A stretch of DNA of 64,000 nt from the IMG/VR virus record IMGVR_UViG_3300049982_000206, one strand, 5' to 3'. Shown in pieces: positions 4,564 through 33,652 of this stretch (positions within the stretch are counted from its first letter, which is position 1; each line of letters starts with the position of its first letter). The notes under the pieces are model-generated. The model made no database searches. It was given only the letters and a program-made list of their open reading frames with translations, and had not been told where the DNA came from. This stretch comes from an uncultured virus (IMG/VR IMGVR_UViG_3300049982_000206) (taxonomy: Duplodnaviria; Heunggongvirae; Uroviricota; Caudoviricetes). The position numbers were made by a program, and so were the translations under genes.

Positions 4564-5052
4564 ATGCGGCCGAGAGTAATTACTACAGAACACCAATGGG
4601 TAATCGCAGCAACAATTGACGTAAACGATCAGATAGCACGTAAGGGAGTTCAGCGCGGAGTCGTGCGAATTCCTAGTGACACACAGATCGACGTCATGGA
4701 GACCTACTGCGCGATGTGCCGAAAGATGTACGAGGACGTCGCCGACGCGCCGTGCTCGGCAGCTTCGATCGGTACCGAGCATCTCCGCGGGGGACCCATC
4801 GGTGTTAGGGCGAAGAGGACCGGCGCTGCTGCCGGGTCCATCGTCGAGCCCGTTATACGACCAACGCCCCGGCCCGCGCTGCGACCTGTTCAGCAGCCCG
4901 CCGCCGCAATTCGAGCAACACCGCCACCTGCTACACAACCGATTCGGCCCATGAAGAAAAAGCGGGCTTGTCCGAAACCTAAGCCTTGGTCAGCTGGAGA
5001 TTCGGCAGCCCTCATGCTGCCGTTCCCGGTGGACGCGACGCTAACTGGGTAG
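4564..5052 (+). CDS. hypothetical protein (CxxC, Pro-rich tail)
   Basis: GGGAGG RBS; ORF track. Confidence 0.6.
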   Translation: MRPRVITTEHQWVIAATIDVNDQIARKGVQRGVVRIPSDTQIDVMETYCAMCRKMYEDVADAPCSAASIGTEHLRGGPIGVRAKRTGAAAGSIVEPVIRPTPRPALRPVQQPAAAIRATPPPATQPIRPMKKKRACPKPKPWSAGDSAALMLPFPVDATLTG

Positions 5053-5064
5053 GCGTCATACGGT
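5031..5064 (+). promoter_or_regulatory. phage promoter motif
   Basis: GGACGCGACGCTAAC-N13-TACGGT. Confidence 0.8.
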
Positions 5065-5071
5065 CCCAGGC

Positions 5072-5290
5072 GTGACCATCCCAGACGCTGAGCCCCGCCT
5101 CGAAGCCGGCAGCTTCGCCCGGAGAGCGATCCTCGACTACCTGTCGATCGTGCTCATCCTGGCTGGAGCTGCCGGCTTCGACGTGCTCGTCTGGCTGATG
5201 GAATGGCGGGCAGGCCTCGCCGTGATCTTCCTGTACATCGCTGCCGTCGGCTTTGTCGTCGGCATGGACCGCGAGGGGGGTCGTCGGTGA
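5072..5290 (+). CDS. small two-TM membrane protein
   Basis: Two hydrophobic segments; GTG 7 nt after promoter -10; typical position before portal. Confidence 0.7.
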   Translation: MTIPDAEPRLEAGSFARRAILDYLSIVLILAGAAGFDVLVWLMEWRAGLAVIFLYIAAVGFVVGMDREGGRR

Positions 5291-10700: not shown

Positions 10701-13700
10701 CCGGTGGAAGATCCCGGCGCCGGAAACCACCGGTGACCCAGAGGCCGACAAGCGCGCGCTTGCAGCCTCGCTGCGAGCGGCTGCGCGCGCGTCTGACAAC
10801 GCCGCAGACCGCGCCGCGCTGAACTGGGCCGCGCGCCAACTGGTGCCGCCGGCGCCGCGCCCGCGCCCAGAAGGCGGCGCGCCGCGCAAGCCACGCACGC
10901 GCTCCCCGCAGCGGCAGGCGCGCGCCCAGGCCGATGGTGACGTCGCGGCGGCGCGCGCGGCGCGCAAGCCTCCGGTATCACCGGAAGCGCGCATGGCGGC
11001 GCTGGCAGCGCTCGCGGACGAACTCGACCGCCTCGGAGTGGGTGGCGTCCCAGTCACCCAACCGACCGTCACCGCGACCGGTGAAGGCAGCGAGGAGCAG
11101 AGCGGCACGTCGATCGTGACCGCGCTGCGGTCGTTCGTCGCGGAGTACAAGAAGCGGCGCGCCCAGGTGGACTCCGGTGCGGCACCTGTAGACAGTGGGG
11201 ACAACCAAGGAGGTACCGATGGGTCGGCTGGCGATGCTGGCACAGGAGCACTACGAGAAGCTACTGCCGAAGACGTACGCGGGTCTGACCGACCCGGAGA
11301 CGTTCTTCCGGAATCTGGAGACGGAAGCGGAGCAGCAGATCGACGACCTGACGGACCGCTTCGCGGACGTGGATCTGAACCCGGCGGAGACGTTCGAGGA
11401 GAAGGTGGGGAGGCTCAAGAACGCCCGGCAGCGGGCGGAGGAGATCGTGCTGCGGGAGACGGTGCTGATCGACCCCGCAACGGTGGAGACGGAGACCGAC
11501 TCGCAGGAGACGGACTACCCGTCGACGACGGATCTGGCGACGCCGGAGGACCGGGAGTTGGCGAGCGCGATGGCCGACTTCCAGGAAGCGACAGAGGAAT
11601 TGGCGGAGATCCGGAGCAGCAGTCAGCCTCCGCAGAGTCAGTCCGCGTCGCCGATGCCGGACTCGCCTCCGACGGAGTAACCGAGGCCGACCAGCCGGCA
11701 CCGTCACCTGCCGCTGTCCCGGTCAACGTCTCCAGCGGCGGGGACTTCCAGCCGCGAGGCGTCGACGACTTCGCGCCGGCTGGCAAGGTCGGCAAGCTGA
11801 ACGCGAACATCGCCGCGCTGCGGACCCTGCGTACCTTGCAAGGCGAGAAGCGGCCTGCGACTCCGGAAGAGCAGGCGGTCCTGGCGAAGTGGGCTGGCTG
11901 GGGTGGTTTGCCGGAGGTGTTCGACGAGTTCCGCGGCGACTTCGCGCCGCAGCGCGAGGAGCTGCGCGGTCTGCTGTCGGATGCGGAGTGGAACGAGGCG
12001 AAGCGGAACACGCTGAACGCGCACTACACCGACGCCCGCGTGGTCGAGGCTGTCTGGCAGGCAGTCGGGGATCTCGGGTTCCAAGGTGGCCGCGTCCTGG
12101 AGCCCGGGTCCGGGTCGGGAACGTTCATCGGGTTCGCTCCGGACAACGCCAACATGGTCGGGGTCGAGCTGGACTCCACCACCGCGGCGCTGTCGCAGTA
12201 TCTCTACCCGAACGCGATCATCCGCAACGAGTCATTCGCCCGAACCAACCTGCCTGACGGATCGTTTGACGCGACCGTCGGCAACGTCCCGTTCGGTAAG
12301 TTCGCGCTGACCGACCGCCGGCACAACCCCGACAGCGAGTCGATTCACAACCACTTCATCTTGAAGTCGATGGACCTGACCCGGCCCGGCGGCCTGGTGG
12401 CCGTTCTGACGTCCCGGTTCACCCTGGACTCCCTGGACTCGGGCGCCCGCCGGAAGATGGCGGAGAAGGGCGATCTCGTCGGAGCAGTACGGCTCCCGAC
12501 CGGATCGCACCAGCGCGCGTCCGGCACGGATGTCATCGAGGACCTGCTGATCTTCCGCGTCCGCGCTCGGGGCGAGACACCGCACGCGGACCAGTCGTGG
12601 GTCACCTCGACAAAGAAGCAGATCGACGACCAGGTCATCCCGGTGAACGACTACTGGGAAGCGCACCCGGAGAACGTGCTCGGCGTGATGAGCGCCGAGG
12701 CTGGCCGGTTCGGGACGGGCGACCTTGTCGTCCGCGGCGATCGAGACATGGCCGATCTGCCTGCGGTGCTGAGCGGCATCGTGGACCGGGCTCGCGAAGA
12801 CGGATTGGTTGCGTCTGCCTCCAATGGCCCTCGCGCCGATCTCGTCGACGCCGACGAGACGCGTCACGACGGTCACATCCGTGTCGAGGGAGACGGCACG
12901 TTCACACAGGCCCACCGAGGCGCCTCGGTGCCGTTCGAGGTGTCCGCCGTCCAGCGGCCTGAACTCGCCTCACTGATCGGGCTCCGGGACACCTTGAGCC
13001 AGCTTCTCGACGCTGAAGCCTCCAGCCGCGGCCTCACCCCGGAAATCACCAACCTCCGCGGACAACTGAACGTCCAGTACGACGCGTACGTCGCGAAGCA
13101 CGGCCCGATCAACCGGTTCAAGCTGTCCAAGACTGGCACCCGGATTCGTCCGCAGCAGGGCGGGTTCCGGCGCGACCCGATGTCAGCAGTTGTCCGCGCG
13201 TTGGAGACGTACGACCCCAGCGACGGGACCGCCGAGAAGGCGAGCATCTTCACGAAGCGCGCGGTTGCCCCGCGGGAACTCCGCACCAGCACGGACGACC
13301 CGGCGGATGCGGTCAGCCTGTCCGTCGACACGTACGGCGACGTCAACCTTCCCGCGATCGCGGACATGCTCGGTACCGACGAGGCCACTGCCCGGGAGCG
13401 TCTCACCGGCTACGTGTTTGAGCAGCCGCCAACGCGCGCAGGCACCAGCGAGGTGGATGCCCGGATCGAGGCCAACGCCGGGATCGACCCCTCCGGCGAC
13501 CTCCTCGCTGTGGCCGGCATCGAGGCCCCCTCGTTCGTGGTCCCGCCCATCGACGAGGACGCGATCGGGACGCCCGGGAAGTTGGAGCCATCTGCGGCGT
13601 ACCTGTCCGGCAACGTTCGCCGCAAACTTGCGATCGCTCAGGCGGCGGCCGCGGTTGACCCCCGTTTCCAGGCGAACGTCGACGCTCTGAAGGCGGTCAT

Positions 13701-16700
13701 CCCGGCCGACCTCGGCGCGGACGAGATCGACGCGCGCCTCGGCGCGGCCTGGATCGACAAGGAGACCGTGCAGCAGTTCCTTCAGGAACTGTTGCAGGAC
13801 CGCTACAACACCGTGCGGGTCTCTCACTCCGGTGGGTCGATCTGGTCCGTCGACGGCCCGAACTACGGAAACCTCTCTACCGAGGTGTGGGGCACCCAGC
13901 GGCGGTCAGCGAGCGAACTCGTGCAATCGCTGCTGGAGCAACGGTCGATCAAGATCTCGAAGCCGAAGAGTGAGGGTGGGGGCCCTGACCTCGAAGCGAC
14001 CCTGGCTGCGCAGGAGAAGGCGACGGCGATCCAGGAGCGGTTCGGTGAGTGGCTGTGGGAGAACCCTGACCGGGCACGAAAGATGCAGGCCCGCTACAAC
14101 GACATGTTCAATGCGCTCGTGCTGCGGAAGTACGACGGGTCGAGGCGCTCCTACCCCGGCATGGCGGAGTCGTGGAAGCCGCGCGATCACCAGGGCAACG
14201 CGGTCGAGCGGATCGTCAACGAGCCAACCGCGATGCTCGCTCACGTCGTCGGTGCCGGCAAGACGGCCGAGATGGTCATCGGTACGGCGGAACTGAAGCG
14301 GCTTGGGATGTCCCGCAAGCCGTCCATCATCGTCCCGAACCACATGCTGGAACAGTTCACCCGCGAGTACCTGGAGATCTACCCGCAGGCCAAGTTGCTG
14401 GCCGCCGGGTCAGAGGACATGCAAGGCGACAAACGCCGCGAGTTCGTCGGCCGGGCCGCGACCGGCGACTGGGATGCGGTGATCCTCACCCAGGGTGCGT
14501 TCGAGTCGATCCCGATGTCGCAGGAGCAGCAGCAGGCGTACATCGACCGCGAGATGGCTTCGATGCGCTCCCAGCTGGCCCAGGCGCAGGCCGACGAGAT
14601 GGCGGCCCGGGTTGCAGGCGATATGGGCGACCGCAAGAACATCGAGAAGACCGTCAAGAAGATGGAGACGTCCCTGCTCCGCGCCGAAGAGGCGCTCAAG
14701 AAGAAGATGGATAAGCAGAAGGACGTCGGGGTCACTTGGGAGCAGACCGGCATCGACTACCTGTTCGTCGATGAGGCGCATGGCTACTCCAACCTGCGCA
14801 CCCTGTCGAACATCCAGGGCGCTGGCACCACCGGCTCCGACAAAGCCACCGACCTGCACATGAAGCTGGAGTACCTGCGGGAAACGTCGCAGTCCGGGCG
14901 GGTCGCGACGTTCGCGACCGGTACGCCGATCCGGAACACCGTCACGCAGGCGTACGTAATGCAGAGGTTCCTGCGGCCGGACCTGATGGAAGAGGCCGGC
15001 ATCCACAGTTTCGATCAGTGGGCGAGCACGTTCGGCGAAACCGTCGACTCGATGGAGTTGAAGCCCGAGGGCACCGGGTTCCGGCAGACAACCCGGTTCG
15101 CGAAGTTCCGCAACGTGCCCGAGTTCCTGAAGATGTTCCACACCTTCGCCGACGTCAAGATGGCCGAGGACCTGGCCCTGCCGACGCCGGACCTGGTCGG
15201 GGGCAAGGCGACCACAGTCACCGTGCCGTCGTCCGAAGCGCTCGCGGACTACATCCAAGATCTCGGCCAGCGCGCTGACGACGTGCGCAACGGTGTGGTC
15301 GAACCCGAAGAAGACAACATGTTGAAGATCAGCGGCGACGGGCGCAAGGCAGCCCTGTCGATGAAGCTGGTCGGCGGTGACCACGAGCCCGGGAAGATCG
15401 AAGCTGCCGCGGACCAGATCGCGTCGATCTGGGAAGAGAACAAGGGCAACGTCTACACCGACCCGAAGACCGGCGAAATCGACTCGATCGCTGGCGGCAT
15501 GCAGATCGTGTTCCTCGACATGGGCACCCCCAACTCAGAGGGCAAGTGGAACGGGTACGACAAGCTCAAGCAGGAACTCACAGCCCGGGGCATGGACCCA
15601 TCAACGATCCGGTACGTGCACGAGGCGAAGAACGACGCGCAGAAGGCGGAGATGTTCGCCGCCGCCCGCGCCGGCCGGATCTCCGTTCTGATCGGGTCCA
15701 GCGAGAAAATGGGCGTCGGAACCAACATGCAACGGCGTGCCGTTGCTCTGCACCACCTGGACGCGCCGTGGCGCCCTGCCGACGTCGAGCAGCGCGACGG
15801 CCGGATCATGCGACAGGGCAACCTGAACAAGGAAGTACAGATCCTGCGGTACGTCACCGAGGGCAGCTTCGACGCCTACATGTGGCAGACGCTGGAGCGC
15901 AAGGCGAAGTTCATCAACCAGATCATGCGCGGCTCTTTGGACGTCCGCGAGATCGACGACATCGGCGACACCGCGATGTCGTACGGCGAAATCAAGGCTC
16001 TCGCAACAGGCAACCCCGACCTGCTGGAGAAGGCGAAGCTCGACACCGAGTTGACGAAACTGGAGCGGCTAGCGCGGGCCCACAACCGCACCCAGACGAA
16101 CCTGAAGTCCGACATCGGAAACCAGACCCGCAACGCGCAGACGTGGGAGTCGTACGCCGCCCAGTACGACGCCGCTCTCGGGCAACGCGTAAACACTCGT
16201 GGCGAAGCGTTCACGATGGGCGTGGGCGGGATGAAGTACAGCAAGCGGGCTGACGCGGCGGACGCCTTGCGCGACCGGTTCAGCAGCCTCATGAACCAGG
16301 ACCGCTGGGGCGAGGCGCCCGAGCGCAGCGTGGGCACGGTGGGCGGATTTGCCGTCACCGGCCAGGTCACTCCCGTTCCTGGCGGCGGCCGGCAGGTCAT
16401 CGTCCGCTTTGAGGGCGTCCCGGGTGAGGTGACCCGAGTTACGACCGACGACCTGAGACTGTCCGGGATCGGACTCGTCACTCGCCTGGAAAGTTCGCTG
16501 GAAGCATTCGAGGCGAAGCGGGACCGACTGCTTGAGTCCGCTGCAGAGGCCCGCATCGAAGTCAACCGGATGCAGGAACGTGTCGGTGCCGGCTTCCCGA
16601 AGGCGGCCGAGCTGGAGGCCGTGCGGCTGCGGTCGCAGCGGATCAACATGAAGATCGAGCGTGACGCACGCCGGTCCGCCGGAGAAGACATTCCGTTCGA

Positions 16701-16893
16701 CCCGCTGATCGATTCCGCGCAGTACGACGCCACGCTGCCAGTCGAGGAGGCCACCGCACCGGACGACTTCGGCGCAGTCACCGCCGCGGACCTGCGGCAG
16801 GCGGCCGAGGCGCGTGCTGACGCCGAGAAGAGCCTTGTTGTCGAGGCTGGCCGTGTGGTTGTGCGCCTGGTCCAGCGAAAGGTGGCTGCGTGA
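7768..16893 (+). CDS. giant DarB-like N6-adenine methyltransferase / SF2 (SNF2-like) helicase
   Basis: MTase motif I VLEPGSGSG and motif IV GNVPF; helicase AHVVGAGKT, DEAH, TGTP, QRDGRIMRQGN; N-terminal HPRDRVGRF. Confidence 0.9.
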   Translation: MSIVEQPQSAPRPALHLNVETDETKVRRPAWDEVAHPRDRVGRFIETGAEVRVWGGALAKVVRNVGGGRIEIERLSDHSHVIVHRNYLTVTKRPDGTAPTSKRDANVQALPEKAPDPDAVEVPKPTTPPDVDMEDIGNTLDHFLRRMDPEAAERVHAASEDYLRALGNDVPDDEADERAHLIGVLDDIDGKYPTERAILMSTRALRDEAQKEPDGNPEVARQVADDDPVTVRPGQPREPGVPIPPAPSETEPVAGRLVHDGDVLQTRMGRVTVVGEPVKQPNGSYALRLDRGNGNPPVEMVVGSRDRVQREKPATADPTPAPPARGAVGSPDAQPLVPDAPVTDTPAVDKPDSTEANPRRYRTSPSGAREAAYAAEVQESDGYEAGFTVDGWHVTVTDPNSALWSLAGIRDIHDDNLDPSVRASLTPELRRRARISRDALDRLMDDIRRDAGITGNGKPSPRIADTNAPDATPEAPAAAPPEPVKPERRQLDGFSAAESATIHNAVEDHAAQYYRGPATPTADNAAGYVGGIDAATRYVTEGHLKDLLETHGMAKVTQAVLGVIRDDESVLTRTQEDRNNRKAERDAKLAEINQRAGAAAQVENWDEALRGLDEIETIDPTYRPGGLSVDELRTRLTRARGTDSAPQNDAPEAVPDQAPEAVPDQAPSETPAAVEPSTAPAKPRFATVEAVRQWLRGPGSTPQLAREDPERAARHRATNARIANDPALTLSAGGRLIVHRNPTIGGNKEWRIASPANGLHLGRAGTGRNKEEALQLAALMESHVDAEGNPIPFDADDINARIRTWRDKDGLGLGNLLLEDRAKVEPGRRRGADWKDPWWEGQAPQPLPERAPEAAPAPERSGNEYAAEAYAANQRGDRSAALRAILEAERVDPGQDERWRRLRREYRGLPPVPTGTPLDAQGDTIRTPELVVPDSAAPAETNLPDADVDLDEPGDEEVPAVPPVEDTPTSAPTLSADGRWKIPAPETTGDPEADKRALAASLRAAARASDNAADRAALNWAARQLVPPAPRPRPEGGAPRKPRTRSPQRQARAQADGDVAAARAARKPPVSPEARMAALAALADELDRLGVGGVPVTQPTVTATGEGSEEQSGTSIVTALRSFVAEYKKRRAQVDSGAAPVDSGDNQGGTDGSAGDAGTGALREATAEDVRGSDRPGDVLPESGDGSGAADRRPDGPLRGRGSEPGGDVRGEGGEAQERPAAGGGDRAAGDGADRPRNGGDGDRLAGDGLPVDDGSGDAGGPGVGERDGRLPGSDRGIGGDPEQQSASAESVRVADAGLASDGVTEADQPAPSPAAVPVNVSSGGDFQPRGVDDFAPAGKVGKLNANIAALRTLRTLQGEKRPATPEEQAVLAKWAGWGGLPEVFDEFRGDFAPQREELRGLLSDAEWNEAKRNTLNAHYTDARVVEAVWQAVGDLGFQGGRVLEPGSGSGTFIGFAPDNANMVGVELDSTTAALSQYLYPNAIIRNESFARTNLPDGSFDATVGNVPFGKFALTDRRHNPDSESIHNHFILKSMDLTRPGGLVAVLTSRFTLDSLDSGARRKMAEKGDLVGAVRLPTGSHQRASGTDVIEDLLIFRVRARGETPHADQSWVTSTKKQIDDQVIPVNDYWEAHPENVLGVMSAEAGRFGTGDLVVRGDRDMADLPAVLSGIVDRAREDGLVASASNGPRADLVDADETRHDGHIRVEGDGTFTQAHRGASVPFEVSAVQRPELASLIGLRDTLSQLLDAEASSRGLTPEITNLRGQLNVQYDAYVAKHGPINRFKLSKTGTRIRPQQGGFRRDPMSAVVRALETYDPSDGTAEKASIFTKRAVAPRELRTSTDDPADAVSLSVDTYGDVNLPAIADMLGTDEATARERLTGYVFEQPPTRAGTSEVDARIEANAGIDPSGDLLAVAGIEAPSFVVPPIDEDAIGTPGKLEPSAAYLSGNVRRKLAIAQAAAAVDPRFQANVDALKAVIPADLGADEIDARLGAAWIDKETVQQFLQELLQDRYNTVRVSHSGGSIWSVDGPNYGNLSTEVWGTQRRSASELVQSLLEQRSIKISKPKSEGGGPDLEATLAAQEKATAIQERFGEWLWENPDRARKMQARYNDMFNALVLRKYDGSRRSYPGMAESWKPRDHQGNAVERIVNEPTAMLAHVVGAGKTAEMVIGTAELKRLGMSRKPSIIVPNHMLEQFTREYLEIYPQAKLLAAGSEDMQGDKRREFVGRAATGDWDAVILTQGAFESIPMSQEQQQAYIDREMASMRSQLAQAQADEMAARVAGDMGDRKNIEKTVKKMETSLLRAEEALKKKMDKQKDVGVTWEQTGIDYLFVDEAHGYSNLRTLSNIQGAGTTGSDKATDLHMKLEYLRETSQSGRVATFATGTPIRNTVTQAYVMQRFLRPDLMEEAGIHSFDQWASTFGETVDSMELKPEGTGFRQTTRFAKFRNVPEFLKMFHTFADVKMAEDLALPTPDLVGGKATTVTVPSSEALADYIQDLGQRADDVRNGVVEPEEDNMLKISGDGRKAALSMKLVGGDHEPGKIEAAADQIASIWEENKGNVYTDPKTGEIDSIAGGMQIVFLDMGTPNSEGKWNGYDKLKQELTARGMDPSTIRYVHEAKNDAQKAEMFAAARAGRISVLIGSSEKMGVGTNMQRRAVALHHLDAPWRPADVEQRDGRIMRQGNLNKEVQILRYVTEGSFDAYMWQTLERKAKFINQIMRGSLDVREIDDIGDTAMSYGEIKALATGNPDLLEKAKLDTELTKLERLARAHNRTQTNLKSDIGNQTRNAQTWESYAAQYDAALGQRVNTRGEAFTMGVGGMKYSKRADAADALRDRFSSLMNQDRWGEAPERSVGTVGGFAVTGQVTPVPGGGRQVIVRFEGVPGEVTRVTTDDLRLSGIGLVTRLESSLEAFEAKRDRLLESAAEARIEVNRMQERVGAGFPKAAELEAVRLRSQRINMKIERDARRSAGEDIPFDPLIDSAQYDATLPVEEATAPDDFGAVTAADLRQAAEARADAEKSLVVEAGRVVVRLVQRKVAA
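9717..9767 (+). repeat. 24-nt tandem duplication (APEAVPDQ x2) in linker
   Basis: CCCGAGGCCGTGCCYGACCAGGCG twice. Confidence 0.7.
11219..11680 (+). CDS. TnpV-like protein nested in another frame of the giant gene
   Basis: AAGGAGG at 11207-11213, ATG 11219; helical protein containing ARQRAEEIVLRE, similar to the TnpV C-terminal signature. Confidence 0.7.
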   Translation: MGRLAMLAQEHYEKLLPKTYAGLTDPETFFRNLETEAEQQIDDLTDRFADVDLNPAETFEEKVGRLKNARQRAEEIVLRETVLIDPATVETETDSQETDYPSTTDLATPEDRELASAMADFQEATEELAEIRSSSQPPQSQSASPMPDSPPTE

Positions 16894-18125: not shown

Positions 18126-20720
18126 ATGTCCACACCAACGCTCGCGTTCAAGAGCGCCGTCCTCGCTCCGGACAAGGCCGCCGAACTCGTCATCGCCGAG
18201 GCCGAGAGCATCGTCGGGGGCGTAGCGGCCTTTGAGGGCGACGGGATCGTGACCGCGATCGTCTCGGTCACGGGCGTGGTCGATGAGGTCGACGACATCA
18301 TCGAGCCCGGAGCGTACGCCGCAACCCTGTTGAAGCGTCTGCCCAAGGTCTGCTGGCACCACTCGTGGGAGCACCCGATCGGCAAGGTGCTTTGGATCGA
18401 GGAGCTGCTGCCCGGCGACCCGCGGCTCCCCGCGAAGACCCGCGATGGTCAGCCGTGGCCGGCCGAAGCTGGCGCCCTGGTCGCGAAGATGCAGATGAAC
18501 ATGGCGTCCGAGCGTGGCCGCGAGGCCTACTCGGCGATCAAGTTCTACTCCGAGAGCGGCGAGTGCGAGTACTCGATCGGCTACAAGGTCCCCTCGGGCA
18601 AGTCGACTCGCGACAGCAAGGGCATCCGCCGCATCAAGGAGATGGACCTGTTCGAGCTGTCCTTCGTGCTGTTCGGTGCCCACACCATGACGGGCACCCT
18701 CGCGTTGAAGGCTGCTGTCAGCTTGATGAACAAGGCCAACCACGGGACCGTCACGATCAGCAAGAAGGCGATCGACGACGAGTTCGAGCGGCTGATGGCC
18801 GATGTCGACTTCGACGAACTCGCCGATGAAGACGAGCTGCAGCCCACGTCCGACGAACCGGGTCAGGTCGTTCAGGACGAGCAGGGAGTCCTCGAGATCG
18901 AGGACGACGAGGACGACGAGGAAGCCGAGCTGCATCGCGCGGCTCTGGAGGATCCCACCTTCGAAATGGCGGAAGGTCGCCAGGGCAAGAACTACGCCTC
19001 GGACGCCGACACCGACATCACCGACACCTGCAAGGGATGCGGTGACGACGTCGTATTCGACAGCATGAACGGCTGGATGCGCGAGGACGGGTCGTACGGC
19101 CACGAAGACGGCACCACGCACTCCGACCACCTGCCGCCGCCGCCCGAGTTCAAGGCTGAGGGAGGCGCCGACCGCAACCGAGGCGGAGCCGCGAACCTGC
19201 GCCGCTGGTACGTGGCAGGCGCAGACGGCCAGATCGCGTGGGGTAGCAAGGGTGACTTCGATCAGTGCGTTGCGGTCGCGAGCCGACACATGGCCCCCGA
19301 GCGCGCCAAGGGGTATTGCAACCTTCGGCACCAGGACGCAGTCGGTGCTCCCCCGGGCCAGGGCCACCCGGAAGGAAAGGCCGCAACGTACGACCAGCCC
19401 GAGACCACCGCTCCGGACAAGGACCCTGTGACCGGCCCGGATCAGGCCAAGCACACCGGCGTAATGGTTGCCCTGTTCCCTGGCCCAGAGGCGGCGAAGA
19501 AGATCGCCGTACGAGGCGGCGAGGCGCCCGAGGATCTGCACGTCACCCTCGTCTACCTCGGCGACGTATTCGACGCAGCGGGCGAAGGGCTCACCCTCGG
19601 CTCCGCCACGAGCCAGATCGTCGCCGCGGCACAAGCGGCAGCGGCGACCACCAAGCCGCTGAGCGGAACCGTCGGCGGCCTCGGCAAGTTCCCCGACTTC
19701 GGCAACGGCGTACCCGTCTGGTCCCCCGTGGACGTCGTCGGGCTCACCGCTGCACGCGAGGCAGTCGTCGACGCCTTGCAGGCAGCCGGCCTGCCAGTCA
19801 AGACCGACCACGGCTTCACGCCACACATGACGCTCGGCTACAACCTCGATCTCAACCTCATCCCCGACACAGACCCCGTACCGGTCGAGTTCACGCACCT
19901 CGTGGTCGCAATCGGCGGAACCCACACACGCATCCCGCTCGGCGACGACCTCGGAGCAGATGCCTCGGGTGCGGCCATCGCAGGCACACCCACGCAGCCC
20001 GAGCAGGACGACCCCATGGAGAAGGGCTATGACCCGATGATCGAGACCGGACCGCACGCCGGGCACAAGGCCGCCGTACCGGCTGAGGTAGCAAAGGCGT
20101 TCCCTCGACTTCCGGGCACCTTGGAGGAGCGCACGCAGGCACTGAGCGGCGCGCTCGACGAGGCGCTCCTGGGGAACTTCGACGACGACGCTCGCAAAGA
20201 GCGGTACGTCAACATCGACGGCACCTGGATGGACCGCGTCATCTGCACGCTGAACCACTGGTCCTCGAACAGCAACGACAGCTGCCAGTCCTACGAGTTC
20301 CCGTACACCATCAGCGAGGACGGCACGGTCTCCCTCGGCGAACCGTCACCGGTCAAGCTCACTCTCACCGCGGAACTCGACGGCGACGAGGTGGACGACG
20401 TGCCGGCCGGGGACCTGATGCCGCTGGTCGAACGCATCAACGACGTGATCCACGGCCTCAAGACTCTCGGTCCCGTCGAGATCAAGGCAGGCCGGGTGCT
20501 GTCCGCTTCGATCGCGGCACGCCTCAAGAGTGCTGCCGAGCACCTGGTCAGCGTGCTGAAGGCCGGCGGCATCGATATCACCCTTCCCGCTGAAGAGACC
20601 GTCGCTCCTGTCGTCGAAACCGAGACGACCGCGCCGTCCGCTCACGGCAAGTCCGCCAACCTCAACCCATCCGATGTGGCAGCGCTCCTCGCTGACATCG
20701 AGACCATCACCGCGGAGTAG
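18126..20720 (+). CDS. HK97-family prohead protease fused to 2H phosphoesterase and other modules
   Basis: DIIEPGAY, WHH..PIG, YSIGY, LFELSFVLFGA; paired HxT motifs LHVTL and PHMTL. Confidence 0.88.
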   Translation: MSTPTLAFKSAVLAPDKAAELVIAEAESIVGGVAAFEGDGIVTAIVSVTGVVDEVDDIIEPGAYAATLLKRLPKVCWHHSWEHPIGKVLWIEELLPGDPRLPAKTRDGQPWPAEAGALVAKMQMNMASERGREAYSAIKFYSESGECEYSIGYKVPSGKSTRDSKGIRRIKEMDLFELSFVLFGAHTMTGTLALKAAVSLMNKANHGTVTISKKAIDDEFERLMADVDFDELADEDELQPTSDEPGQVVQDEQGVLEIEDDEDDEEAELHRAALEDPTFEMAEGRQGKNYASDADTDITDTCKGCGDDVVFDSMNGWMREDGSYGHEDGTTHSDHLPPPPEFKAEGGADRNRGGAANLRRWYVAGADGQIAWGSKGDFDQCVAVASRHMAPERAKGYCNLRHQDAVGAPPGQGHPEGKAATYDQPETTAPDKDPVTGPDQAKHTGVMVALFPGPEAAKKIAVRGGEAPEDLHVTLVYLGDVFDAAGEGLTLGSATSQIVAAAQAAAATTKPLSGTVGGLGKFPDFGNGVPVWSPVDVVGLTAAREAVVDALQAAGLPVKTDHGFTPHMTLGYNLDLNLIPDTDPVPVEFTHLVVAIGGTHTRIPLGDDLGADASGAAIAGTPTQPEQDDPMEKGYDPMIETGPHAGHKAAVPAEVAKAFPRLPGTLEERTQALSGALDEALLGNFDDDARKERYVNIDGTWMDRVICTLNHWSSNSNDSCQSYEFPYTISEDGTVSLGEPSPVKLTLTAELDGDEVDDVPAGDLMPLVERINDVIHGLKTLGPVEIKAGRVLSASIAARLKSAAEHLVSVLKAGGIDITLPAEETVAPVVETETTAPSAHGKSANLNPSDVAALLADIETITAE

Positions 20721-20723: not shown

Positions 20724-21044
20724 ATGCAGCCGATCGACATCGACAACGTGTTCAGCTACCACCCGCCGACCGGTCCGGCGCAGGTCGAGACCTACGAGGA
20801 CATTCGTACGTCGGGCCGGCAGTTCGCACACATCATTGACGAGATGGTCCCGGACGGGGCGGAGAAGACGCTCGCAATCCGGAAGCTCCAGGAAGCGGTG
20901 ATGTGGGCCAACGCCGGAATCGCCTGCGCACCGCACGACGTTGGCGGAGCGCCAGCGCCTGGACCCGGTGAGATCGGGGACGAGACCGAGCAGTCAGAGC
21001 CGTACGCGGGCGGGGCGTTCGGCGACAACGTCCTCCCCTGCTGA
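20724..21044 (+). CDS. Acb2/Tad1-hairpin-like small protein
   Basis: FSYHPP...YEDIR...VPDGAEKTLAIRKLQEAVMWANAGIA. Confidence 0.65.
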   Translation: MQPIDIDNVFSYHPPTGPAQVETYEDIRTSGRQFAHIIDEMVPDGAEKTLAIRKLQEAVMWANAGIACAPHDVGGAPAPGPGEIGDETEQSEPYAGGAFGDNVLPC

Positions 21045-21547: not shown

Positions 21548-21573
21548 AACTCGTCCGAAAAAAGGTGCTCGCT

Positions 21574-21607
21574 CGACGCGACACTAACTATCCAGCCCTG
21601 ATCGACT
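21574..21607 (+). promoter_or_regulatory. phage promoter motif (capsid)
   Basis: CGACGCGACACTAAC-N13-TCGACT. Confidence 0.75.
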
Positions 21608-21756
21608 AGGGCACACAGCGACTCCGAGGTCGTCCCGGTGCTGACCGGGCGAACGGATAGCGAACCAGCCGCTTTCTGACGCGGCGCTTCGGCCGTGCAC
21701 GCCGCACGGCACATCCGCAACGCCCACATTCCACCCATTCACCGGGGAGCACCATC

Positions 21757-23097
21757 ATGACCACCACCACCGTGGACCAGTCGCGCGTCCGTGAGCTGAA
21801 GAAGCACCTTGCCGCGAAGGGCGAGGAGATCAAGAACCTCGCCGGTTCGTGGAAGACCGAGGAGGGCGGCGAGTTCGTCATCTCCACGGCCGAGAAGAAG
21901 AACTACCTGGACGCCGTCCAGGCCGCCGAGGAGATCAAGAACCTGATCGTCGCCGAGCAGACCGCCGGTGGCATCTTCGAGTTCCTGGAGCAGGCCGAGG
22001 GTAAGTCGGCCGCGGCCGGCGACGCCGCCGACGTCCACCGCGGCGGCGAGCTGAAGAGCGTCAGCGCCGAGTTCCTCGGCTCCGACTTCTACCTGGAGGC
22101 CAAGGCGCGCGGCTTCAAGGGCCAGCCGCTCATGGGCGGCTTCAACATCGAGCGTGGCCTGCCGGACCTCGCGTACGCGTCCCAGAAGGACGTCTACAGC
22201 GCCATGGGCGGCACGGTTTCCATCCCGACGCTCGGCGCCGCGCAGAACCTCGGCCTGACCGAGCGCATGCTGCGCCCGGGGCGCGTCCGGGACCTGTTCC
22301 CGGTCGAGCGGACCTCCGCCGCCATGCTCTACGGCATGGTCGAGACCGGCTACCAGAACCGGGCTCGCGTCGTCGCCGAGCGGACCGCCGCCGACGGCGG
22401 ACCGGCCACCGGCCTCCCGACCGACGTCTACGGCCTCAAGCCGAAGAGCGAGCTGACCATCGTCAGCAAGACGTACCCGATCGCGACCATCGCGCACATC
22501 ATGTACGTCCACAAGAACACCCTGGACGACGAGCCGCGCATGCGCGGCATCCTCGACCGGGACATGGTCGACGGCGTCAAGATGGCCGAGGACGACCAGA
22601 TCCTGTGGGGTGACGGCGTCGGCGACAACCTGACCGGCCTGATGAACACCAGCGGCGTCCAGGAGTACGACGGCCTGACCAGCGACCGTCTGAGCGCCCA
22701 GATCCGCCGCGCCGCGACCCGCTCGGTCCTGGCGTACTTCCAGCCGAACGGCGTGGTCATCCACCCCTTCGACTGGGAGAAGCTGGAGCTGGAGCAGGAC
22801 AAGAACGGCGCCTACACCATCGCAGTGTCGGTCGCCGTCGGTGGCGAGAAGCGCGTCTGGCGCATGAAGGTCACCGACACCCCGTCGATGAACGAGGGCA
22901 TGGGCCTGCTGGGTTCCTTCGGTACCGGCGCCAAGCTGTACGACCGCGAGCAGGTCAACGTCCAGATCTCCACGGAGAACCGCGACATGTTCGAGCGCAA
23001 CGCCTACACGCTGCGCGCCGAGGAGCGCCTCGGTCTGGTCGTCGACCGGCCGGAGTCCTTCGTCGCCATCAACTTCGCCGACTACGTCGAGGCGTAG
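21757..23097 (+). CDS. major capsid protein (HK97 fold)
   Basis: Strongly biased codons; KPKSEL, TIAH, EDDQILWGDG, LRAEERLGLVVDRPESF. Confidence 0.95.
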   Translation: MTTTTVDQSRVRELKKHLAAKGEEIKNLAGSWKTEEGGEFVISTAEKKNYLDAVQAAEEIKNLIVAEQTAGGIFEFLEQAEGKSAAAGDAADVHRGGELKSVSAEFLGSDFYLEAKARGFKGQPLMGGFNIERGLPDLAYASQKDVYSAMGGTVSIPTLGAAQNLGLTERMLRPGRVRDLFPVERTSAAMLYGMVETGYQNRARVVAERTAADGGPATGLPTDVYGLKPKSELTIVSKTYPIATIAHIMYVHKNTLDDEPRMRGILDRDMVDGVKMAEDDQILWGDGVGDNLTGLMNTSGVQEYDGLTSDRLSAQIRRAATRSVLAYFQPNGVVIHPFDWEKLELEQDKNGAYTIAVSVAVGGEKRVWRMKVTDTPSMNEGMGLLGSFGTGAKLYDREQVNVQISTENRDMFERNAYTLRAEERLGLVVDRPESFVAINFADYVEA

Positions 23098-28849: not shown

Positions 28850-28898
28850 GAAAGCGCCGCTCCTGCACACCCCCGGTTCGGTGCAGGAACGGCGCTTC
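28850..28898. terminator. bidirectional stem-loop between convergent genes
   Basis: AAGCGCCG.TCCTGCAC...GTGCAGGA.CGGCGCTT. Confidence 0.7.
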
Positions 28899-28908: not shown

Positions 28909-29391
28909 TCAGGCGTAGGTGAAGGCGCCAGCCGCCGTGACGTCCCCGGACGCGTCCTGGATCACGACCGCGACCGCTCCGGCGGCGTGCGGCGGGGTGG
29001 TGCAGGTGATCTTGGTGTCGGAGACGACCTTGACGTTGGTCGCCGCGGTGCCGCCGAAGGTGACCCCTCGTACCCCGGCGAACCCGGTGCCGGTGATGGT
29101 GACGGCGAGGTTTCCCGCAGCCAGACCGGACGCCGGCGCGATCGCGGTGAACGCCGCGGACGACGAGGAGTACATCGCGTCGATCTGCGCCTGCGGGACC
29201 TCCTGGCCGGCGATGAACAACTTCGACCGCTTGCTCTTCGCGCTGTCGTCGAAGTCCTTCCCGCCGGGGAAGGGCGTGATCTCGAAGATGTCCTCGGTGA
29301 ACTTCACGATCGGAGGCTGCGGAACGCTGGTGGTCAGGGCGAGCAGCTGCGCCTTGGTCAGCTTCGTCCCGGCGCTGTTGACGATGGTCAT
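28909..29391 (-). CDS. IPT/TIG (Ig-like) domain protein
   Basis: VTITGTGF..VTFGG...VVSDTKITCTTP...FTY; GAAAGG RBS; own promoter motif on minus strand. Confidence 0.85.
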   Translation of the reverse strand: MTIVNSAGTKLTKAQLLALTTSVPQPPIVKFTEDIFEITPFPGGKDFDDSAKSKRSKLFIAGQEVPQAQIDAMYSSSSAAFTAIAPASGLAAGNLAVTITGTGFAGVRGVTFGGTAATNVKVVSDTKITCTTPPHAAGAVAVVIQDASGDVTAAGAFTYA

Positions 29392-29427
29392 GGTCGGCCT
29401 TTCGGGTGGGGATGGTGCGACGCGCAC

Positions 29428-30569: not shown

Positions 30570-31010
30570 GTGCCTGACCTGGTCGACGCCGATCCGGCCG
30601 CGGTCGTCATCGCCTACCTGAGCAGCCACCCGGCTGTCACGGAGGCGCTTGGCGGCCCTGGTCGGATCTCGCTGAAGAACCAACCGCCGTACCCACACCT
30701 CGGCGTCGCTGACACTCCTGGCGGCTCCGACCGCGATCTACGGTGGCTCATCTCCCCGGAGATCTCCCTCACGCTCTGGGGTGACCTTGACGGTTCTCCC
30801 GGCAAGGCGGCACTCCGGCGGGCCCTCTACACCGTCCTGCAGGCTCTTGCAGAGCTGCCCGAGCAGGCGACCGGGCCTGGGCAGCCTGTCGTCACGGCGG
30901 TCGAGTCAAGCGGTGCTGGTGGATGGTCCCCGGAGCCAACCGGGCAACCTCGGTATCTCAGCCGCGTCCGGGTCTACATGCACCCGCCGGTCGAGGCGCC
31001 GACCCCCTAG
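30570..31010 (+). CDS. tail terminator-like protein
   Basis: Size, synteny, PRY motif. Confidence 0.65.
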   Translation: MPDLVDADPAAVVIAYLSSHPAVTEALGGPGRISLKNQPPYPHLGVADTPGGSDRDLRWLISPEISLTLWGDLDGSPGKAALRRALYTVLQALAELPEQATGPGQPVVTAVESSGAGGWSPEPTGQPRYLSRVRVYMHPPVEAPTP

Positions 31011-31711
31011 CGCGGCGTCTTGTCCGTGACGATCTCGAACAGGGGAACGTCCTGTGTACCGGGTGCGCGGGAAGCTCGCCGTTTGGCCATTGCGCCGGTG
31101 ATCATGGCCCGGCGCCGATCCGACTCACGGGCTCGGTCCGCCTTGCAGATCCGGCAGTCTCGCGTCTTCCGTGTCGGATGCCAGTAAGTGTTCTCAGGCG
31201 TGAATTCGTGCCCGTGGTCGCAGTGTGTCTTGCGTGCGTTAACGGCCGTCGGCGATCCGGATCGTGCGTTGTTCTCCTCCGGGGTCACCGCCTGCAGATG
31301 ACCCGGGTTGACGCACAGCCGGTGAATGCAGTCGAAGTCCGCTAGGGCACAGACGTCCCATTCATGGCAGACGTGGTCAACCTGATGGTCTGGCGGGATC
31401 TCGCCGTTGCAGTGCTCCCAGATCCACCGGTGTGCAAGCACTGTCGCCTCTTCTGAGACCCGGAAGAGGCCGTAGCCGTTCTCGGTGACAGCGCCGGTCC
31501 AGATCCAGCAGGGGCCGAGGCTGGCGTCTGGAGGGATCGGGCCGGCCATGTCGATCTTGTGCATGAACCGCCTGCCGGGGATGCCCCGTACGACGATCCG
31601 TGCTCGCTCTCCTGAGTCCAGGACGTCGCGGTAGCAGTCCGGGCACATGCCGCGGCGGCGGCGACGGTTGTCCGTCGATCCGCAGACGGTGCAGGCCGGG
31701 GTCATTTCCAC
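31007..31711 (-). CDS. HNH homing-type endonuclease
   Basis: CWIWTG..NGYG, AHR, DHVC, CVNPGHL, EENNAR, KTHCDHGHEF. Confidence 0.9.
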   Translation of the reverse strand: MEMTPACTVCGSTDNRRRRRGMCPDCYRDVLDSGERARIVVRGIPGRRFMHKIDMAGPIPPDASLGPCWIWTGAVTENGYGLFRVSEEATVLAHRWIWEHCNGEIPPDHQVDHVCHEWDVCALADFDCIHRLCVNPGHLQAVTPEENNARSGSPTAVNARKTHCDHGHEFTPENTYWHPTRKTRDCRICKADRARESDRRRAMITGAMAKRRASRAPGTQDVPLFEIVTDKTPR

Positions 31712-31738
31712 AGTTTCGCAGGGCTGGCCGTGTTCGCT

Positions 31739-31772
31739 CGACGCGACACTAACCAGGCCGCACTCCTACGTT
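31739..31772 (+). promoter_or_regulatory. phage promoter motif (tail tube)
   Basis: CGACGCGACACTAAC-N13-TACGTT. Confidence 0.8.
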
Positions 31773-31837
31773 GCCGGTGACCACGACGCCGCTGCCCTGA
31801 ACACGGAGTCACAACATCGCATGAGGGAGTGCAGACA

Positions 31838-32410
31838 ATGGGTGACAAGACCCGCATTGTCGTGGCTCAGATGGCGCGGGTTTATCTCGCCCCCGTCGGT
31901 ACGGCGGCGCCCGTCGACGCCACCACCGCTTTGGCCGCGGCATGGAAAGAGGTCGGCTACTTCACGCCGGACTCGCTTGGATGGTCCACCGATCCGTCGT
32001 TCGAGGAAGTGCGTTCGCACCAGTCGAACTACCCGACCCGGAAGTTCCAGACCGAGGACGCCGCGACGGCCGAGGTCGACCTGCAGGAGTGGTCGTCGGC
32101 CAACTTCCGATCGGTGTACGGCGGTGGAACCGTCACCGAGATCACGCCGGCCATGACCCCGCCGCAGTACAAGTTCTCGCCTCCGGCGATCGGCGGTCGC
32201 GAGAGCGTCGCTGCGGTGATCGAGATCATCGACGGCTCGAAGCACTACCGGCGCGTCATCCCCCGCTGCGAGCAGGGCGAGGGCGTCGAGCAGACCTTCG
32301 AGAAGACCAGCGAGTCGACGCTTCCGCTGCGGCTTTCGGTCCTGGGCGCTGACATCGGCGACCCGTGGTACGACCTGACCGACGACCCGGCGTTCGCGCC
32401 GGCTGCGTAG
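31838..32410 (+). CDS. major tail (tube) protein
   Basis: VYLAPVGT...WKEVGY..DSL, LQEWS; synteny. Confidence 0.8.
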   Translation: MGDKTRIVVAQMARVYLAPVGTAAPVDATTALAAAWKEVGYFTPDSLGWSTDPSFEEVRSHQSNYPTRKFQTEDAATAEVDLQEWSSANFRSVYGGGTVTEITPAMTPPQYKFSPPAIGGRESVAAVIEIIDGSKHYRRVIPRCEQGEGVEQTFEKTSESTLPLRLSVLGADIGDPWYDLTDDPAFAPAA

Positions 32411-32428
32411 GTTCAGGCGGATTGTGAC

Positions 32429-32462
32429 CGACGCGACACTGGCCGGATCGGCTGGATAGCTT
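32429..32462 (+). promoter_or_regulatory. phage promoter motif (sRNA 1)
   Basis: CGACGCGACACTGGC-N13-TAGCTT. Confidence 0.7.
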
Positions 32463-32469
32463 CGGTCAC

Positions 32470-32590
32470 GTACCGGGGACTTCCCCTCTGTCCTCCAGCA
32501 TTCCCCCGCTGACAGCAGGGCGTCTCCGGTACACCCCCCACGGTTCGGCCCCTTGGCTCTGCTCCTCACCAGAGTCCGGGGGCCGAGCCA
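32470..32590 (+). ncRNA. candidate structured small RNA 1
   Basis: Own promoter motif 32429-32462; stem 32470-32480/32522-32532 and hairpin 32542-32589; no credible ORF. Confidence 0.5.
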
Positions 32591-32601
32591 TGTGCGTTGC
32601 T

Positions 32602-32635
32602 CGACGCGACGCTAACCAGCGCTGACACCTACGTT
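32602..32635 (+). promoter_or_regulatory. phage promoter motif (sRNA 2)
   Basis: CGACGCGACGCTAAC-N13-TACGTT. Confidence 0.8.
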
Positions 32636-32641
32636 CGTCCC

Positions 32642-32710
32642 GCTCGCCCAGGCGGTGCGAGCACGCGGAGGTGGCGAGCGCTACCGGGGTCAGCCTCGCC
32701 ACCTCCGCCC
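32642..32710 (+). ncRNA. candidate structured small RNA 2
   Basis: Own promoter motif 32602-32635; hairpin 32642-32662 and perfect 14-bp stem 32665-32678/32695-32708. Confidence 0.45.
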
Positions 32711-32720
32711 CCTGGTTGCT

Positions 32721-32754
32721 CGGCGCGACGTTAACCAGTCCCGCTACCTAGCCT
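32721..32754 (+). promoter_or_regulatory. phage promoter motif (chaperone/tape measure)
   Basis: CGGCGCGACGTTAAC-N13-TAGCCT. Confidence 0.75.
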
Positions 32755-32792
32755 TCGAGCGAGTTGACCCCGAAACCCCAGGAAGGCCACAG

Positions 32793-33350
32793 ATGAGCGA
32801 CGAATTCGAGGGCCTGGACCTCGACCAGGAGCGGCAGGTTCGCGCGGCGACGCGCGAGGGAAAGAAGGCCGAGCTGCCGATCAGGATCGGGGGCGAGGTG
32901 ATCGCTACCCTGCCGGCCGAGTTGCCGTTCGGCGTCATCACACCGCTGCGCAAGATCGACGACACAATCGCCCTCGTGATCCGCGAGGGGATGCGGTTGG
33001 TTTCCGACCAGGCCGCCGCCGCGAAGTGGCAGTCGACCGAACTGGTCGTGAACATCCTTGCCTCGAACGAGAACCTTCCGACCAAGGTCGTCGAGGTCAT
33101 CGAGGAGATCAGCACGAATCTGCTGACCCGCGAAGGCATGGACAGGTTCATGGCTGCGAACCCGTCCATGCAGGACATCAAGGCGCTTGCCCTGGGCATC
33201 TTCGCCTATTACGGGGTGAGCCTGGGGGAAGCATCGCCGTCCTCCGACTCGTCGACCGGCGATGGGGGGACGTCTCCTACGACTTCCAGCACGAACTCGG
33301 ACTCGACGCCCGAGGAATCTGGGCCGAACCAGGAACCCCTGGCTTCATAG
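32793..33350 (+). CDS. tail assembly chaperone (G)
   Basis: Between tail tube and tape measure; slippery GGGGGAA at 33224-33230. Confidence 0.8.
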   Translation: MSDEFEGLDLDQERQVRAATREGKKAELPIRIGGEVIATLPAELPFGVITPLRKIDDTIALVIREGMRLVSDQAAAAKWQSTELVVNILASNENLPTKVVEVIEEISTNLLTREGMDRFMAANPSMQDIKALALGIFAYYGVSLGEASPSSDSSTGDGGTSPTTSSTNSDSTPEESGPNQEPLAS

Positions 33351-33652
33351 GCGTCCGCCGGTTCCTGGAGTACGTCAACAGACTCCCTAGAACCGCCTGC
33401 ATCCGGACCACAGCAGAGCAACGCACACGGGAGGAGTGGACGGTGGAGCGCGAGTTGCTGTCGCAGCTGGTCGAAGTCGTGTCGGTCAGTGCCTCCGGCA
33501 AGCAGCTCAAGAAGAACATCGTCATCCCCCGTCCTGACTACGTGAAGCGGCGCAGCAAGGCGCTCGCCTCCGGCGTCACCAACGTCCCTGACGGGGCGTT
33601 CAAGCAGGGCATCGCGGTGCTCGCAGCGACGAGTCCGGCGGTACGCCGATGA
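33224..33652 (+). CDS. tail assembly chaperone -1 frameshift extension (GT)
   Basis: Open -1 frame from GGGGGAA to 33652 (WGDVSYDFQHELGLD...RLP). Confidence 0.75.
   Translation, partial: GGSIAVLRLVDRRWGDVSYDFQHELGLDARGIWAEPGTPGFIGVRRFLEYVNRLPRTACIRTTAEQRTREEWTVERELLSQLVEVVSVSASGKQLKKNIVIPRPDYVKRRSKALASGVTNVPDGAFKQGIAVLAATSPAVRR

Follow-up and report, generated by a model that had tools for sequence, protein, structure and literature searches.

Why does a phage carry three copies of a promoter between two tail genes when only the last of them precedes a gene? We studied this question in a 64,000-nt stretch of DNA (hereafter the window) from an uncultured soil virus of the Caudoviricetes (IMG/VR record IMGVR_UViG_3300049982_000206), where a gap separates the gene for the major tail (tube) protein from that for the tail assembly chaperone. 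The gap measures 382 nt (32411-32792, from the tail-tube stop at 32410 to the chaperone ATG at 32793). An open reading frame (ORF) check found no credible ORF inside it, and it contains three promoter-like motif copies (P1, P2 and P3) and four very stable hairpins. A preliminary description of the window had noted the three copies and proposed that the first drives a small RNA (sRNA) of about 120 nt with loops complementary to Shine-Dalgarno (SD) sites. Its sequence observation was confirmed: the 15-mers of the motif start at 32429, 32602 and 32721, and a gene follows P3 only, leaving P1 and P2 as orphans. Its interpretation was partly supported. The reading we favour, with slightly less than even confidence, is that the gap is a cis-acting transcription-punctuation array of the structural operon which also emits short RNAs, the RNA of the first unit being a by-product.

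A tandem array of promoters and hairpins

The three promoter copies are alike in layout. P1 lies directly behind the tail-tube stop, and P2 and P3 each lie behind a long GC hairpin (stem-loops SL2 and SL4, respectively). The distance from hairpin to 15-mer is 12 nt in both cases, and a 36-nt repeat (D1, 81% identity) begins inside those 12 nt. The second unit (P2, SL3, SL4) repeats the design of the first (P1, SL1, SL2), with a predicted start at a 5' stem and then a long hairpin. Folding of the whole gap gave -202.1 kcal/mol on the + strand (z -9.67), whilst the - strand was much less distinctive (z -3.21). Features are listed in Table 1.

We propose that SL2 and SL4 serve as I-shaped terminators without a U-tract, like those of high-GC actinobacteria, and stop or damp polymerase that has transcribed the heavily expressed tail-tube gene or has started at an orphan promoter further upstream. 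By ending tail-tube transcripts they would shield the next promoter from occlusion. P3 would then restart transcription, giving the chaperone and tape-measure genes a lower, separately controlled transcript level. P1 and P2, placed upstream of hairpins, would yield short hairpin-bounded RNAs of ~120 nt (32470-32590) and ~70 nt (32642-32712). As these begin with a stem at +1 and end in a long hairpin, each is probably stable. Such an array would show how these phages keep the low-copy chaperone and tape-measure genes apart from a tail-tube gene that is expressed at a very high level. In phage lambda, the oop RNA and the pR'-tR' 6S RNA are short non-coding transcripts upstream of late or structural genes, each made from a phage promoter with a terminator hairpin within 70-200 nt. 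The gap is similar in that its promoters are followed by hairpins, with short RNAs predicted before structural genes. It differs in host phylum and promoter type, in showing no evident Q-like or antisense relationship, and in having a further promoter directly after.

A terminator scan found no canonical L-shaped terminator (GC stem-loop plus U-tract) in 32411-32792. In their predicted folds SL2 and SL4 are highly stable GC stem-loops with no U-tract, placed where a predicted transcription unit would end, the sequences after them being AUGUGCGUUGCU and CCCCUGGUUGCU. For SL2, G-U pairs give the + strand RNA (-38.3 kcal/mol, z -6.8) an advantage of 8 kcal/mol over the - strand RNA (-30.1 kcal/mol); SL4 reaches -34.9 kcal/mol (z -6.7). 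Term-seq in Streptomyces clavuligerus, in the part of the published account drawn on here (PMC8269248), revealed stable stem-loop 3' ends lacking U-tracts, with 5' arms enriched in C and 3' arms enriched in G. The gap hairpins resemble these I-shaped terminators: both are very stable GC stem-loops without a U-tail, with a C-rich 5' arm and a G-rich 3' arm, at the end of a highly expressed gene. Unlike them, as far as they are portrayed in that part of the account, the gap hairpins form a tandem array with each member 12 nt before a promoter, and termination here is predicted. The proposed role also matches that of the terminator-insulator of Tn916, a mobile-element terminator that shields downstream genes from upstream transcription; as outlined in sections of PMC11658703, that system differs in having a single terminator and no tandem orphan promoters, and in being another type of element.

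The strongest pointer to the role of SL2 comes from a related locus, L007, whose tail-tube protein is 60% identical to that of the window. The two are collinear, each with a terminator hairpin, an orphan promoter, a hairpin with GGGGT in its loop and a chaperone promoter, and the -10/start region of P2, CTACGTTCGTCNCGCTC, is common to the window and the L007 orphan site. In their alignment the position of SL2 is taken in L007 by a hairpin with a U-rich tail, that is, a canonical terminator, directly upstream of the P2 homologue. Thus, SL2 is probably a terminator or insulator upstream of P2.

The repeated motif is supported as a real phage promoter by its strand specificity, intergenic position and fixed geometry. 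It comprises a 15-mer, CGACGCGACRYTAAC, then 13 nt and a TAnnnT-like box. Matches to CGACGCGACRYTAAC with at most 3 mismatches numbered 17 in the window against 0.84 expected, and 16 of the 17 were on the + strand, on which nearly all window genes are coded. A [T/C]A-n-n-n-T box lay exactly 13 nt 3' of the 15-mer at 9 of 12 sites outside the gap and at all three gap copies, and the strict bipartite pattern matched 9 times in the window (0.01 expected). In Streptomyces phage Gilgamesh, the nearest cultured relative (129 kb; tail-tube proteins 58% identical), this pattern gave 12 forward and 0 reverse matches, and 0 in a backwards control; motif sites there include ones ahead of the tail-tube and chaperone genes. 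Read as a promoter, the motif places a TAnnnT -10 box 18 nt from a -35-like GCGACR. A T-A-n-n-n-T box at a fixed distance from a GAC-containing -35-like element, upstream of genes and on their strand, is expected of an actinobacterial housekeeping-type promoter with a phage-specific upstream element, and this putative promoter shows that layout. Judged from sequence, the geometry fits that type better than the E. coli consensus, and no sigma-70 consensus site (TTGACA-16/18-TATAAT, at least 9 of 12 positions) was found in 31500-33500.

To score the gap copies, a position-weight matrix (PWM) was trained on the 12 sites outside the gap, excluding the three copies within it (training range 26.7-44.3 bits), with background window positions and 50 random 64-kb sequences as controls. 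P2 and P3 fell inside the training range. P1, the weakest of the three, scored 18.2 bits, with the next best background positions at 14.6 and then 8.0 bits, and none of the 50 random sequences reached its score. As 18.2 bits is below the training range and above all background, P1 is a significant but degenerate copy. A relaxed fixed-geometry pattern, scanned in the gaps of 26 related loci with a placeable chaperone start, gave 36 + strand and 3 reverse-strand matches; at 16 of the 26, the distance from the end of a promoter-like site to the chaperone start was 25-55 nt. The motif would define the promoter used across a large group of actinophages, most of them uncultured. Its bipartite form with fixed 13-nt spacing is common to the cultured phage Gilgamesh, which makes it directly testable.

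We also looked for a sigma factor or RNA polymerase gene. None was found among 55 ORF translations picked from the ORF list (15 compared with PHROGs and 40 with Pfam), a subset of the window ORFs, with half of the phage genome lying outside the window; only a sub-threshold Gp68-like match at 61996-62238 turned up. Elsewhere in the window, a promoter copy is followed by a 172-nt structured leader before the portal gene (5031-5205, z ~ -4.9) and another by a ~140-nt structured leader before the major capsid gene (21548-21760, z ~ -3.2), both against mononucleotide shuffles. The sole - strand gene of the structural region (28909-29427; IPT/TIG domain, E 2.8e-16) has its own motif copy at 29428-57 (- strand), back to back with one at 29469-98 (+ strand).

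Table 1. Features of the gap and of the genes beside it
Feature	Coordinates	Strand	Details
Tail terminator gene	30570-31010	+	
HNH endonuclease gene	31007-31711	-	Pfam HNH_3, E 3e-9
Major tail (tube) protein gene	31838..32410	+	PHROG 117, E 2e-26; ORF opens at GTG 31829, probable ATG 31838
Hairpin embedding P1	32424..32469	+	inverted repeat I7; -25.1 kcal/mol, z -4.5; 14 nt after tail-tube stop
P1, degenerate orphan promoter copy	32429..32462	+	15-mer 32429-43 with 3 mismatches; -10-like TAGCTT 32457-62 at exact 13-nt spacing
SL1, 11-pair stem closing an inner hairpin	32470..32532	+	minimum free energy (MFE) fold; apical loop AUUCCCCC, interior CUCC; -34.1 kcal/mol, z -5.3
SL2, hairpin of 19-20 pairs	32542..32589	+	MFE fold; loop CTCCTCAC at 32562-69 (RNA CUCCUCAC); 12 nt upstream of P2
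P2, intact orphan promoter copy	32602..32635	+	0 mismatches; -10-like TACGTT 32630-35; PWM 34.5 bits
SL3, short 5' stem-loop	32642..32662	+	starts at the predicted P2 transcription start, G32642
SL4, perfect 14-bp stem	32665..32708	+	inverted repeat I3; 16-nt loop with CCGGGGUC; ends 12 nt upstream of P3
P3, predicted promoter of chaperone/tape-measure genes	32721..32754	+	1 mismatch; -10-like TAGCCT 32749-54; PWM 36.6 bits
GACCCCG in chaperone leader	32766..32772	+	complementary to SL4 loop; duplex -16.9 kcal/mol, P 0.017 against shuffled leader
Tail assembly chaperone gene	32793..33350	+	ATG 32793; ribosome-binding site AGGAAGG 32780-86; tblastn to relatives
Overlapping frameshift ORF of chaperone	33026-33652	+	PHROG 2624 tail assembly chaperone, E 1.5e-8

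The orphan units in related phages

Both IMG/VR and the phage collection lacked close relatives of the window. Tail-tube relatives are common in metagenomes, where 460 of 684 candidate proteins reached E <= 0.001, and also lie on 100-180 kb contigs in Microbispora, Actinomadura, Planobispora and Streptosporangium genomes, with a relative present in 15 of 401 genomes sampled from the order of those genera. For comparison, 44 loci with a tail-tube homologue (numbered with the prefix L) were collected, of which four repeat earlier places and two repeat a third locus. A literature search on Gilgamesh, and on actinophage non-coding RNA at this gap position, returned nothing relevant.

The preliminary description had placed a predicted transcription start at the 5' end of an 11-bp stem enclosing a pyrimidine-rich stretch with TCCTCC, followed by a long hairpin with an 8-nt loop. 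Computation recovered each of these elements. The P1 start, taken ~7 nt past the -10-like box, falls at 32468-70 and coincides with the 5' end of SL1, whose closing stem pairs 32470-80 with 32522-32, including one G-U pair. TCCTCC lies at 32491-96 in the part enclosed by that stem, its CUCC in the interior loop of the MFE fold, and SL2 with the loop CTCCTCAC is part of the same fold. The first unit (126 nt) folds with -74.6 kcal/mol (z -7.73), and 0 of 200 shuffles were as stable.

The proposed anti-SD character of this RNA fared less well. The SL2 loop CUCCUCAC and the CUCC are indeed unpaired in the MFE fold, but such words are no commoner than composition predicts. Words complementary to GGAGG-type sites occur 4 times in the 126 nt, compared with 2.1 (P 0.20) when dinucleotides were shuffled and 1.3 (P 0.08) when mononucleotides were, and CTCC occurs 3 times against 2.5 in shuffles, showing no enrichment. 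The C content of the first unit is 42%, and in a C-rich, fully folded RNA the unpaired residues are C-rich anyway. Thus, the anti-SD words of the first unit result from its composition.

We compared the first unit (32466-32595) by blastn with all 45 other sequences from related loci (E <= 0.05). There were 0 matches; the promoters and the chaperone leader alone were recognisable. The first-unit RNA is therefore not a conserved family at the available depth, and the structural conservation in relatives to which the preliminary description had looked is absent from these sequences for the 120-nt element. Nor did Rfam covariance models supply the family that had gone unrecognised: they gave 0 matches in the whole window at gathering scores, nothing in the gaps of 20 related loci and, at E <= 10 on 32380-32820, chance-level miRNA/CRISPR-type hairpins only, with 6C (RF01066) absent. 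The P1 product is lineage-specific and most likely a by-product. A contig of 451 nt from a DNA run of the probable source sample lies on 32526-32760, with 26 differing letters and 17 gaps and no fit upstream, and one of 1841 nt from a DNA run of another sample lies on 32658-33400. In L012, a related metagenome contig, Rfam Transposase-2 RNA scored 54.2 bits (gathering score 42.7) at 5299-5371 (-), which is ~1.7 kb further downstream than the gap.

The orphan unit of the gap that appears to be conserved is the neighbour of the one singled out earlier, namely P2-SL3-SL4 (32602-32708). Its part downstream of P2, taken as 32642-32720, folds with -50.1 kcal/mol (MFE frequency 0.64, z -4.2). Relatives repeatedly seem to have an orphan promoter-like site and then a structured non-coding RNA at this position. 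Comparison thus supports the idea of a promoter-driven short RNA for the second unit, but not the specific 120-nt anti-SD sRNA, which has no matches in relatives and the weakest promoter.

The hairpin nearest upstream of the chaperone promoter carries GGGGT in its loop, close to the 3' arm, at nine loci (the window, L007, L008, L009, L012, L013, L021, L027 and L028). When these nine hairpins were aligned with MAFFT, GGGGT was the sole invariant block. Pairs were counted from each hairpin's own fold; MAFFT left the arms out of register. The motif is enclosed by 9-21 pairs, paired positions are 37% identical between loci, and every position from the loop outward has 2-6 pair types, with 7 of 139 pairs being G-U. 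RNAalifold found 4 of 15 pairs changed on both sides in L027/L028/L021, and 2 of 52 in L008/L009. The count of nine is ascertained, as the hairpins were picked by the motif, which is missing from same-position hairpins of the remaining loci. Estimated from word frequency, the chance of a six-letter word in a ~12-nt loop is ~1 in 100 hairpins. As a word, CGGGGTY occurs in the window at chance frequency (35 against 38 expected), and a descriptor scan for GGGGT-loop hairpins with stems of at least 9 bp was at chance level (21-39 matches per shuffle), only long-stem matches being informative.

Upstream of the GGGGT hairpin, 7 of the 9 loci have an orphan promoter-like site with no ORF between, giving predicted RNAs of ~70-130 nt; L021 and L027 retain only the TATCGT box there, the one that L028 uses. 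The chaperone leader of the window has a stretch complementary to the SL4 loop (Table 1), and so has that of L007 to its own loop (P 0.003), with an A:U to U:A swap relative to the window. In the other seven loci six showed nothing and one was marginal, and all these P values are uncorrected for 9 tests. Whilst plain termination would not need it, SL4 keeps its invariant GGGGU loop across relatives. We infer that SL4 with this loop is the selected element of the gap. The invariant loop suggests a sequence-specific partner, protein or RNA, beyond plain termination. We count the GGGGU-loop hairpin as a candidate new RNA motif. An SL4-like hairpin at 28851-28898 (18-19 bp, loop CCGGGGGU / CGAACCGGGGGU) closes the - strand IPT/TIG gene, so the loop type may mark a class of 3'-end hairpins in this phage.

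Alternative readings of the array

Several observations weigh against the punctuation array. The terminator scan found a U-tract after none of the four hairpins, and if polymerase read through them the units would become long leaders. Simple termination leaves three things unaccounted for: the invariant loop beside arms of such low identity, the orphan promoter-like sites upstream of most of the nine hairpins, and the exact coincidence of both predicted RNA starts with a 5' stem. Loop, orphan sites and 5' stems all fit selection for the RNA itself.

These points lead to the alternative that we consider possible, though clearly on the unlikely side: P2-SL3-SL4 would be a genuine, positionally conserved small RNA gene, its GGGGU loop either binding a protein or pairing with a C-rich RNA, for example the chaperone leader, and the first unit would be a second, lineage-specific copy of the design. 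The invariant GGGGT on divergent arms at nine loci, the compensatory changes in L027/L028/L021, the orphan sites with their predicted RNAs of 70-130 nt and the stems at +1 of those RNAs are all in its favour, as is the complementarity between loop and leader in the window and L007. Against this, that complementarity is absent in 6 of the 9 loci, marginal in one and uncorrected for multiple tests; L021 and L027 have no recognisable upstream element; the hairpin count is ascertained; and the RNA matches no Rfam family. An own promoter, an own 3' hairpin and no ORF, as expected of a stand-alone sRNA gene, are all predicted here. Conservation falls short, with the first unit unmatched and only the terminal hairpin and architecture of the second kept, the RNA body differing between loci.

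A wider version of this proposal is somewhat more doubtful still. It holds that a widespread group of ~130-kb actinophages, seen in soil metagenomes and on contigs of Microbispora, Planobispora, Streptosporangium and Actinomadura, carries between its tail-tube and chaperone genes a promoter-driven small RNA gene of 70-130 nt with an invariant GGGGU hairpin loop, the design occurring twice in tandem here. This would be a new class of phage regulatory RNA, controlling the tail operon by antitermination, by chaperone-leader pairing or by capture of a host C-loop sRNA such as 6C. If the orphan units turn out to be such functional RNAs, they would count among the earliest examples of regulatory RNA known from within an actinophage structural operon.

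The gap is also a variable hotspot, its length ranging from 27 to 631 nt across the 26 loci with a placeable chaperone start. By eye, more distant relatives have a simple layout of stop codon, one hairpin, promoter and chaperone, and several, such as L002, L036, L039 and L045, have a hairpin between the tail-tube stop and the chaperone-proximal promoter-like motif. In the closest locus, L003 (81% protein identity, tblastn), an apparent HNH-type gene replaces the first-unit region; L003, L005 and L020 all seem by eye to have such a gene in the gap, on the other side of the tail-tube gene from the HNH gene of the window. L010 (3692-4090) and L019 (164-625) have an ORF of ~130 codons in the gap behind its own promoter copy, with the look by eye of a small membrane protein, and these resemble moron-like insertions at the same hotspot. 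Partial promoter duplications were seen, again by eye, in L004/L010.

Such variability could mean that the orphan copies are scars. The dispersed ~35-bp promoter motif would serve as a recombination joint for cassettes (HNH, small membrane-protein genes) entering or leaving the gap, and the duplicated promoters and terminators left behind would themselves be functionless. The degenerate state of several orphan copies fits this: besides P1, the L007 orphan scores 17.2 bits against 40.4 bits for its chaperone promoter. P2, however, is intact, the P2, SL4 and P3 arrangement is common to the window and L007 despite the divergence of their tail-tube proteins, and the invariant loop argues for selection. 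We regard scars as improbable. Should the gap hold only terminators and scars, it would be a useful warning that base composition alone can produce C-rich 'anti-SD' loops in the spacers of high-GC phages.

The trans-acting sRNA of the preliminary description, ~120 nt long, driven by P1 and pairing through exposed CCUCC-type loops with SD sites or sponging a protein, now looks decidedly doubtful. P1 has the correct geometry, its predicted start meets the SL1 stem, and the loop CUCCUCAC and interior CUCC are unpaired; yet P1 is the weakest promoter copy, homologues are missing, the anti-SD words stand at composition level, and CCUCC in a loop, being able to pair with almost any ribosome-binding site, would confer no specificity. 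RNAs of the 6C type have at least two hairpins with loops of six or more C. The first-unit loops, AUUCCCCC (five C) and CUCCUCAC, are not runs of six C, and their C-richness is explained by the 42% C of the unit. The actinobacterial 6C sRNA (RF01066) has hairpins whose C-rich loops bind by G-C pairing without a chaperone, according to the portion of PMC6486639 used here. The first unit shares with it, on that description, hairpins with C-rich loops and a high-GC Gram-positive setting; unlike 6C, it is phage-borne, is not conserved and has no covariance-model match to 6C or any other family even at E <= 10.

Least probable of all, and very unlikely in our view, is antitermination acting through the nascent RNA, as with lambda nut or HK022 put, in which the two stem-loops after P2 (and P1), alone or with a phage protein that reads GGGGU, would make polymerase terminator-resistant for the ~7-kb tail operon and leave P3 polymerase unmodified: the gap twice has a promoter followed at once by two stem-loops (SL1/SL2 and SL3/SL4), a loop that stays invariant whilst its stems vary is what characterises a hairpin read by protein or polymerase, and the next downstream motif copy is 6.7 kb away (39493), but stems of 14-21 bp of GC are far longer than boxB, P3 directly after SL4 makes antitermination dispensable, and there is no candidate N-like protein among the 55 ORFs given to scans. 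As presented in the consulted part of PMC9378689, putRNA acts alone on polymerase, and the gap appears to share with putRNA and nut two stem-loops immediately after a phage promoter and a sequence-constrained hairpin part; its stems are much longer than theirs, and the likeness is one of architecture alone.

Flanking genes and other features of the window

The window has a GC content of 66.6%, and its + strand codes a siphovirus-type structural module (portal, capsid protease fusion, major capsid protein and tail genes), with a tape measure protein of 1629 aa. A database record with an identical 190-aa protein, from a contig of 134,914 bases, exists for the tail-tube product. A longer chaperone start at GTG 32655, or a hidden ORF in the gap, was rejected because the chaperones of relatives align from the ATG 32793 region. 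A replication origin at the gap was also rejected, the skew having no turning point there. Within the chaperone gene a slippery heptamer, GGGGGAA, lies at 33224-33230, where the overlapping frame is open, and relatives carry GGGGGAA at the corresponding place; it is likely the programmed frameshift site of this gene. The HNH gene lies between the tail terminator and tail-tube genes, and 62 nt of it are 90% identical to an HNH gene of Gordonia phage ChisanaKitsune.

Further observations concern the head-gene region. A 106-aa protein (20724-21044, +) with an Acb2/Tad1 hairpin domain (E 9.5e-20) is likely, from its domain match, a sponge for cyclic-nucleotide immune signals; its gene is flanked by that for the capsid protease fusion and by another that lies upstream of the major capsid gene. 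The protease fusion (18126-20720, +; 864 aa) is unusual, joining head maturation protease matches (residues 37-223) to an RNA-ligase-like domain (residues ~440-610). A DarB-like antirestriction / methyltransferase-helicase protein of 3041 aa (7768-16893, +; PHROG 10089, E 0) is encoded in the same region. Finally, ARAGORN called a 98-nt tRNA-Lys(UUU) at 58449-58546 (-); over-long for an ordinary tRNA and containing a 19-bp GC hairpin (58457-58497), this call may hold an insertion or be false.

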